Positions 1,647-1,945 of a stretch of DNA of 64,000 nucleotides are shown here, one piece after another; position 1 is the first letter of the stretch; the number at the start of each line of letters is the position of its first letter. The stretch is from Escherichia coli (GTDB lineage: Bacteria; Pseudomonadota; Gammaproteobacteria; Enterobacterales; Enterobacteriaceae), in assembly GCF_002854065.1 (NCBI RefSeq), contig NZ_CP024147.1. One strand, written 5' to 3'. The translations under genes and the position numbers were made by a program. The notes below the pieces were generated by a model. It saw nothing but the letters and a program-made list of their open reading frames with translations. It did not search any database and was not told the DNA's origin.

Positions 1647-1722
1647 GCGGGAATAGCTCAGTTGGTAGAGCACGACCTTGCCAAGGTCGGGGTCGCGAGT
1701 TCGAGTCTCGTTTCCCGCTCCA
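1647..1722 (+). tRNA. glyV: tRNA-Gly (anticodon GCC)
   Basis: 76-nt GCGGGAATAGCTCAGTTGGTAGAGCACGACCTTGCCAAGGTCGGGGTCGCGAGTTCGAGTCTCGTTTCCCGCTCCA; cloverleaf with GCC anticodon in CTTGCCAAG loop, CCA encoded. Confidence 0.97.
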
Positions 1723-1758
1723 AAATTTGAAAAGTGCTGCAAAGCACAGACCACCCAA

Positions 1759-1834
1759 GCGGGAATAGCTCAGTTGGTAGAGCACGACCTTGCCAAGGTC
1801 GGGGTCGCGAGTTCGAGTCTCGTTTCCCGCTCCA
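1759..1834 (+). tRNA. glyX: tRNA-Gly (anticodon GCC)
   Basis: Identical 76-nt copy, 36 bp downstream of previous copy. Confidence 0.97.
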
Positions 1835-1869
1835 AAATTTGAAAGTGCTGCAAAGCACAGACCACCCAA

Positions 1870-1945
1870 GCGGGAATAGCTCAGTTGGTAGAGCACGACC
1901 TTGCCAAGGTCGGGGTCGCGAGTTCGAGTCTCGTTTCCCGCTCCA
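1870..1945 (+). tRNA. glyY: tRNA-Gly (anticodon GCC)
   Basis: Third identical 76-nt copy. Confidence 0.97.

Follow-up and report, generated by a model that had tools for sequence, protein, structure and literature searches.

The glyV-glyX-glyY genes of Escherichia coli K-12, which encode tRNA-Gly3 with the anticodon GCC, are taken here to lie at about 94.7 min on the chromosome, with orn on one side and datA and queG on the other. They give rise to a tricistronic precursor that is processed by RNase E (PMC4191395, PMC9841416), and have elsewhere been termed a 'putative operon' (PMC7461829). A major RNase E cleavage in vitro falls 1 nt downstream of glyY (PMC4191395), and it depends both on the spacer between glyX and glyY, which is single-stranded, and on the glyX tRNA next to it (PMC4191395, PMC9841416). 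A fourth gene, glyW, yields an identical mature tRNA; together the four GCC genes supply 6.76% of total tRNA, and a glyVX deletion is viable, with a drop in the translation of reporters rich in GGU and GGC (PMC7461829). This fourth gene belongs to a separate operon, in a cluster with further tRNA genes at another chromosomal site, outside the DNA studied here. The polycistronic tRNA operons of E. coli that are processed by RNase E/RNase P, such as argX-hisR-leuT-proM, metT-leuW-glnUW-metU-glnVX, valV-valW and leuQPV, share with glyVXY a single promoter, short A/U-rich spacers and an encoded CCA, as well as cleavage by RNase E immediately downstream of the tRNAs and a dependence on a neighbouring structured tRNA (PMC9841416). 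Unlike them, glyVXY is homopolymeric, and its near-identical spacers carry a small conserved hairpin.

The window analysed here is a 64-kb stretch of E. coli DNA (64,000 nucleotides), in which ARAGORN found exactly three tRNA-Gly(GCC) genes, all on the + strand and the only tRNA genes of the window: glyV (1647-1722, 76 nt with an encoded CCA), glyX (1759-1834) and glyY (1870-1945). A script comparison confirmed that all three 76-mers are identical, and each scored 69.1 bits against the Rfam tRNA model (RF00005; gathering score 29) over the full model, positions 1-71; the first is annotated as tRNA-Gly in the 100%-identical record NZ_CM128593.1. Tandem Repeats Finder described the region 1647-1947 as 2.7 copies of a 111-bp period (99% matches, score 595). 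Three identical 76-mers at such regular spacing cannot be the product of chance. The sequence-only reading of this DNA had proposed three identical tRNA-Gly(GCC) genes, and in this it was right; its repeat unit of 111-112 bp also stands (the two units are 112 and 111 bp), whereas its 36-bp spacer length is true of only one of the two, the other being 35 nt.

Glycyl-tRNA synthetase of E. coli recognizes its substrate by G1:C72, C2:G71, G3:C70, the discriminator base U73, C35 and C36, and all of these elements can be read in the sequence, with its 5' end GCGGGAA, its 3' end TTCCCGC-T-CCA and the anticodon GCC. ARAGORN placed this anticodon at position 34 in three of three copies, so that GCC occupies positions 34-36. 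The 3' CCA, typical of E. coli tRNA genes, is genomically encoded, every copy ending in GCTCCA.

Rfam also returned a match to the Y-RNA-like family YrlA (RF02553) at 1784-1922 (+), with 40.3 bits and an E-value of 1.9e-6, on the strength of which the units might be thought to encode something other than tRNAs, for example a tRNA-mimic RNA spanning two units. The score, however, is far under the family's gathering score of 69, and the match straddles parts of glyX and glyY, as would be expected of a cross-match because YrlA contains a tRNA-like domain; each unit, on the other hand, lies well above the threshold of the tRNA model itself, and no Ro or Rsr gene occurs among the neighbours. We regard a non-tRNA product as scarcely credible, and the sub-threshold match, which does not place the locus in RF02553, is most likely a tRNA-like cross-match. 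Other, above-threshold Rfam matches in the window lie elsewhere: an RpsF leader (34314-34398, +), ES239 sRNA (46476-46598, +), STnc450 (49950-50007, -), ES036/CssrF (50087-50129, -) and naRNA4/CssrE (59113-59191, +).

A 1,201-bp query around the array matched 5,425 of 5,426 complete E. coli genomes, the best match, at 100% identity, being to strain 100416 (Gambia), and the whole 1,201 bp aligned at 98.0% to the K-12-derived strain MFDpir, which likewise has three tRNA-Gly genes. In the 100%-identical record, the gene order is mscM, asd, rsgA, orn, the three tRNA-Gly genes, a 17-codon ORF, queG (on the opposite strand), nnr, tsaE and amiB; thus orn lies upstream on the same strand as the array and queG downstream on the other. 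In tblastn searches, the orn match ended 214 nt upstream of the array and the queG match began 273 nt downstream. The genes, their order, their flanks (orn upstream, yjeV and queG downstream), the spacer design and the promoter are all shared with K-12 glyVXY, and the differences are confined to strain-level single-nucleotide changes in the flanks. The operon in the window also agrees with the descriptions of E. coli glyVXY in the literature, and we found no evidence that contradicts this identification. It is very nearly certain, in our judgement, that the locus is the chromosomal glyV-glyX-glyY operon of E. coli with its three identical tRNA-Gly(GCC) genes, and that this accounts for the repeat; the feature is real, and it is a known and ordinary one. 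Genome OHT76-1 (NZ_CP135244.1) gave a single tRNA-Gly match elsewhere, and seems to be without the glyVXY locus, through either a real deletion or collapse of the assembly.

The DNA directly downstream of glyY has features of its own. In the literature, datA lies between glyVXY and queG, as does yjeV (PMC10380432). In the window we found four DnaA-box-like sites right after glyY, at 1964-1972 (+), 2031-2039 (+, a perfect TTATCCACA), 2193-2201 (+) and 2205-2213 (-), which fits the DnaA-inactivation locus datA. Boxes at +19 to +23 and at +86 to +91 from the last tRNA recurred in most of the Enterobacteriaceae loci examined, and a similar pair lay about 10 nt farther downstream in Erwinia, Winslowiella and one Pantoea; none was found after the last tRNA in the Morganellaceae loci examined. 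The 17-codon ORF, annotated as the hypothetical protein WP_010723271.1 (2179-2232, +), is contained within the datA region, where it overlaps the beginning of the oppositely oriented queG.

The promoter was assigned from its sequence and its conservation. A -35 hexamer, TTGCAG (1562-1567, +), is separated by 16 nt from a -10 hexamer, TATAAT (1584-1589, +), which is followed by a GC-rich discriminator, GCGCCTCCC (1590-1598). The core, TCTCGTATAATGCGCCTCCCGT, was invariant in all 13 Enterobacteriaceae genera compared, in keeping with the earlier placing of a promoter at about 1562-1589, and could be recognized with one to three changes in Pantoea, Erwinia, Morganella, Proteus, Providencia, Photorhabdus and Aeromonas; across the Enterobacterales and Aeromonas, (C/G)TTGC(A/G) is kept 16 nt upstream of TATAAT. 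The -35 hexamer is preceded by an A/T-rich tract, AAAAACTCAAAAAAAATTTTTTAGGGG (1533-1559, +), with an A/T-rich tract at the equivalent place in each of the other genera compared. We take this tract to be a possible UP element, and the discriminator to mean stringent and growth-rate control, in both cases from what is generally known of tRNA and rRNA promoters. A promoter, PglyV-X-Y, has been drawn at glyVXY in a review (PMC10380432).

The predicted 5' leader of about 50 nt (1597-1646, +), whose start point we place from conservation, begins with CCCGTAACGA, a sequence conserved across genera, and contains a predicted hairpin at 1598-1626; the fold of 1596-1646 had an energy of -8.4 kcal/mol (z -2.78). 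Beyond glyY, the trailer, starting AAUUCUUCUC (1946-2005, +), contains an imperfect hairpin (1968-1995) followed by the T-run TTTTTGTTGT (1996-2005), and the segment 1946-2010 folded at -14.3 kcal/mol (z -2.68). The first DnaA-box-like site (1964-1972) overlaps the 5' arm of this hairpin. Among the 44 Enterobacterales loci examined from outside E. coli, 28 had a hairpin and a T-run, of varying sequence, 47-58 nt past the last tRNA, and the structure after glyY is a probable intrinsic terminator. A pattern scan for sigma-70 promoters and terminators (1300-2400) called neither the glyVXY promoter, because its -35 hexamer matches the consensus at just three of six positions, nor the terminator, because the stem is imperfect; both assignments rest on conservation and folding in place of that scan.

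Within the array (1647-1945), the same scan found no internal promoter-like or terminator-like site, and the spacers, of 35-36 nt, lack a T-run. Together with the published precursor (PMC4191395, PMC9841416), this supports the single polycistronic transcript proposed earlier. In the scheme that we favour, a strong sigma-70 promoter at 1562-1598 (TTGCAG, 16 nt, TATAAT and the GC-rich discriminator) would drive the operon, giving a predicted transcript of about 400 nt that consists of leader, tRNA, spacer, tRNA, spacer, tRNA and trailer and ends at the hairpin and T-run at about 1968-2005. RNase E would cleave the single-stranded A/U-rich segment directly 3' of each encoded CCA, the basis for this in vitro being the glyY site, after which RNase P would generate the 5' ends and 3' exonucleases would trim back to the CCA, as in the general pathway. 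We infer the transcription start, the efficiency of termination and the RNase P and exonuclease steps from conservation, folding and general knowledge. The three copies would then provide gene dosage for a heavily used tRNA, tRNA-Gly(GCC) being the major glycine tRNA, decoding GGC and GGU.

The two spacers are alike in design. Spacer 1, AAATTTGAAAAGTGCTGCAAAGCACAGACCACCCAA (1723-1758, +, 36 nt), consists of an A/U-rich 5' segment, AAAUUUGAAAA, a hairpin (1734-1747) and a 3' segment, AGACCACCCAA, which forms the 5' leader of glyX. Spacer 2 (1835-1869, +, 35 nt) is spacer 1 minus one A, with its hairpin at 1845-1858, the A being missing from the run that follows AAATTTG. Both spacers form the hairpin GUGCU-GCAA-AGCAC, in which a GNRA-type loop caps a stem of 5 bp, with a folding energy of -7.2 kcal/mol (z about -2.2 against shuffled sequences); both the one-base difference and the small GTGCT...AGCAC hairpin had been seen by the sequence-only reading. 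Enterobacteriaceae spacers keep a 5' segment, AAATTTGA, and a 3' segment, CACCCAA. The first is A/U-rich and directly follows the CCA, at a place equivalent to that of the RNase E cleavage after glyY, and the second is the leader of the next tRNA.

Between these segments, in part of the Enterobacteriaceae (about a dozen genera), the hairpin changes in sequence while its pairing stays, with compensatory stems such as GUGCU/AGCAC, GUAUC/GAUAC, GUGUC/GACAC, UGGCU/AGCCA and GGCC/GGCC; the loop is in many cases a GNRA tetraloop. We counted pairs in a sequence-only alignment of 11 distinct spacers from seven genera, a clean subset with 4-nt loops, in which all 55 cells (100%) were paired and four of the five pairs changed on both sides; in control counts, made after sliding the 3' partner 1-3 columns along, pairing fell to 7-58% of cells and no pair had a double change. 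A covariance-model alignment of 55 spacers, which is fitted to the model and so leans towards structure, and which missed most Cedecea and Buttiauxella spacers, gave 98.8% of 173 cells paired with 45 double-change cells, against 15-55% pairing and no double changes in the slid controls. A MAFFT alignment of 31 hairpin-bearing spacers was left out of the pair counts, since the groups with 5-nt loops (Cedecea, Buttiauxella and Citrobacter) were out of register. The hairpin was not found in the shorter spacers of Klebsiella, Raoultella, Kluyvera and Pluralibacter gergoviae, nor in the Erwiniaceae and Morganellaceae, and it is thus conserved in one clade and dispensable elsewhere.

A role for the spacer hairpin in processing is plausible, because, in RNase E, the groove that takes up tRNAs is reported to accept simple stem-loops too. 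The hairpin could offer RNase E a second structured element beside each tRNA, or could hold in place both the RNase P leader and the single-stranded A/U-rich segment where cleavage occurs, and in this way set the order or the rate of cutting.

Copy number among E. coli strains was determined in a census of 5,426 complete genomes. Synthetic alleles of k copies with 60-nt unique flanks served as queries, because a BLAST search with the full locus joins overlapping pieces and cannot separate alleles (a two-copy genome still gives 100% coverage), and E-value limits were set to pass only near-full-length single alignments; for the six-copy query, whose E-value underflows, a lower bound was used. 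All of the census matches shown carried the expected 'tRNA-Gly (xk)' annotation. Genomes without an insert had one copy in 15 cases, two in 81, three in 3,680, four in 16 and five in one, with none at six or more; among those with an ERIC element in spacer 1 (queried for two to four copies; see below), 26 had two copies, 1,577 three and one four, and three genomes could not be placed. These three and 26 others that fit no class make up the 29 genomes outside the census classes. Overall, three copies were present in 5,257 of the 5,426 genomes (96.9%), two in 107, one in 15, four in 17 and five in one. The strain comparison that the sequence-only reading had called for thus gives a copy number that is nearly, yet incompletely, fixed in E. 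coli, with a range of 1-5.

Several variant alleles occurred in sets of isolates that share a source or a series name and have chromosomes of almost the same length, such as three mouse isolates with four copies and the bovine OkiPb series with ERIC and two copies, which argues for real, inherited alleles. Some alleles of one, two, four or five copies could nevertheless be assembly errors. The single-copy alleles include those of the laboratory strains MC1061 and OV2 and of the O104:H4 strain 2011C-3493, where real deletion and assembly collapse are both possible. Copies of the array also appear on plasmid records.

In order to judge the age of the array, we used an exact-pattern scan for two adjacent tRNA-Gly(GCC) genes, with one genome per species, which gave at least 120 loci, and analysed the loci listed with ARAGORN and with tblastn (Orn and QueG as queries). 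Among these, the order orn, array and queG (on the opposite strand) was found throughout the Enterobacterales, in dozens of genera, most with 2-4 copies; they include Salmonella, Citrobacter, Enterobacter, Klebsiella, Raoultella, Kluyvera and Cedecea, and also Pantoea, Erwinia, Proteus, Providencia, Morganella and Photorhabdus. Among the same listed loci, an orn-linked array was also present in Aeromonas (5-7 copies), Tolumonas, Idiomarina and Algicola, with 2-7 copies over the whole set. The tRNA was identical at 76 of 76 positions across most Enterobacterales and Aeromonas, at 74 of 76 in Proteus and at 74 of 76 in one copy in Photorhabdus. From so wide an orn-linked distribution, the array long predates E. 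coli and is common to the Enterobacterales and several other gammaproteobacterial orders.

These results bear directly on the recent amplification that had been proposed for the array, according to which the copies arose in this lineage and are identical for lack of time to diverge. The identity of the tRNAs and the single base that separates the spacers are what such an event would leave, and the copy-number variants of E. coli show that units are gained and lost. The orn-linked arrays across the Enterobacterales, Aeromonadales, Idiomarina and Algicola contradict it, however, as does the presence of three copies in nearly all E. coli genomes; and, since the tRNA is invariant between most Enterobacterales genera, the identity of the copies is no evidence of recency and reflects selection rather than age. 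The spacers, moreover, are alike within a genome and different between genera, as expected if an old array is continually homogenized. Recent amplification is, on this evidence, very unlikely.

The behaviour of the spacers was examined in 28 genomes with three copies and two short spacers. Within a genome, the median identity of the two spacers was 0.915, compared with 0.60-0.62 between genomes, and the difference between orthologous and paralogous identity was 0.000, spacer 1 being as close to another genome's spacer 2 as to its spacer 1. Both within-genome identities exceeded both orthologous identities in 331 of 378 genome pairs. The units thus show the pattern expected of concerted evolution, whether through gene conversion or unequal exchange, and the earlier suggestion of gene conversion, made alongside that of amplification, gains support from this homogeneity within genomes and lack of positional orthology. 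That exchange of units does happen is shown by the copy-number variants of E. coli. Gene conversion or unequal crossing-over would both keep the units alike and yield the rare alleles of one, two, four and five copies. The array in this resembles the rRNA and tRNA tandem arrays known to evolve in concert, whose units are made uniform inside each genome and come to differ from species to species, and whose copy number shifts by unequal exchange; unlike other tandem multigene arrays, it is very short, with 2-7 units of about 100-120 bp, and is held near three in E. coli.

Some of the longer arrays have a structure of their own. The seven-copy array of Enterobacter ludwigii has spacers of 28, 197, 28, 28, 28 and 197 nt, those of 197 nt containing an ERIC element, and this repeating pattern suggests duplication of a multi-unit block. 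Aeromonas arrays show alternating spacer types, and in the seven-copy array of Aeromonas caviae the 114-nt spacer 3 holds a decayed tRNA-Gly copy.

The insert in the E. coli arrays is 121 bp long and is found between glyV and glyX, where it occupies the 3' end of spacer 1, in 1,607 of the 5,426 genomes (29.6%), for example in loci L003 (4560-4680), L004 and L055; it is absent from the array in this window. Both standard primer sequences for ERIC have matches in it, ordered and spaced as expected; the ERIC element reportedly goes back to Hulton et al. 1991. ERIC copies also occurred in spacer 1 or 2 of the arrays of at least seven non-E. coli genera, in Citrobacter, Kluyvera, Klebsiella oxytoca, Pluralibacter, Superficieibacter, Silvania and Enterobacter ludwigii. 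The copies in array spacers were always in the same orientation and had GAAGATTA(A/T) as their last bases, immediately ahead of the following tRNA; what may be shortened derivatives, with the ends of the element retained and the primer core lost, were seen in Trabulsiella, Shimwellia and Pantoea. This recurrence suggests either an old, retained insertion or a recurrent target. ERIC (or IRU) elements are miniature inverted-repeat elements of about 127 bp, usually co-transcribed, that can create RNase E sites (PMC3184786); the E. coli spacer-1 insert differs from the typical ERIC in that it sits within a tRNA operon rather than beside an mRNA.

Genes for tRNAs are common sites of integration, as is generally known, and a mobile element in spacer 1 of so many strains might lead one to see in the repeat a scar left at an attachment site, or else a mobile element associated with tRNA genes, for instance an island at tRNA-Gly that had duplicated the 3' end of the tRNA. 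Such an event would leave partial 3' duplicates, however, whereas all three copies here are full-length and identical. Core genes (orn, queG, nnr, tsaE and amiB) flank the array, with no integrase among them, the window has no insert, with neither an integrase nor island genes between the copies, and synteny is kept across genera. The full-length copies and the core-gene flanks exclude a scar or island here, and we consider any reading of this kind extremely improbable.

An ERIC element in spacer 1 may affect how the operon matures, or how far transcription runs on into the neighbouring datA. A broader proposal joins this effect to the spacer hairpin, holding that the hairpin is a selected processing element rather than a leftover, and that, linked to this, ERIC may alter operon maturation or datA read-through; we offer it tentatively, as a possibility that is somewhat unlikely to hold in full.

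As the re-identification of a textbook tRNA operon, the finding in itself changes nothing. Its modest value lies in what surrounds it: the question of copy number now has a numerical answer, and the idea of recent amplification gives way to that of an old and continually homogenized array. The spacer hairpin and the promoter core emerge as conserved features, and a common ERIC insertion polymorphism is documented inside a tRNA operon directly upstream of the replication-control locus datA. This polymorphism could serve to probe how the content of a spacer affects tRNA processing or transcription into datA.
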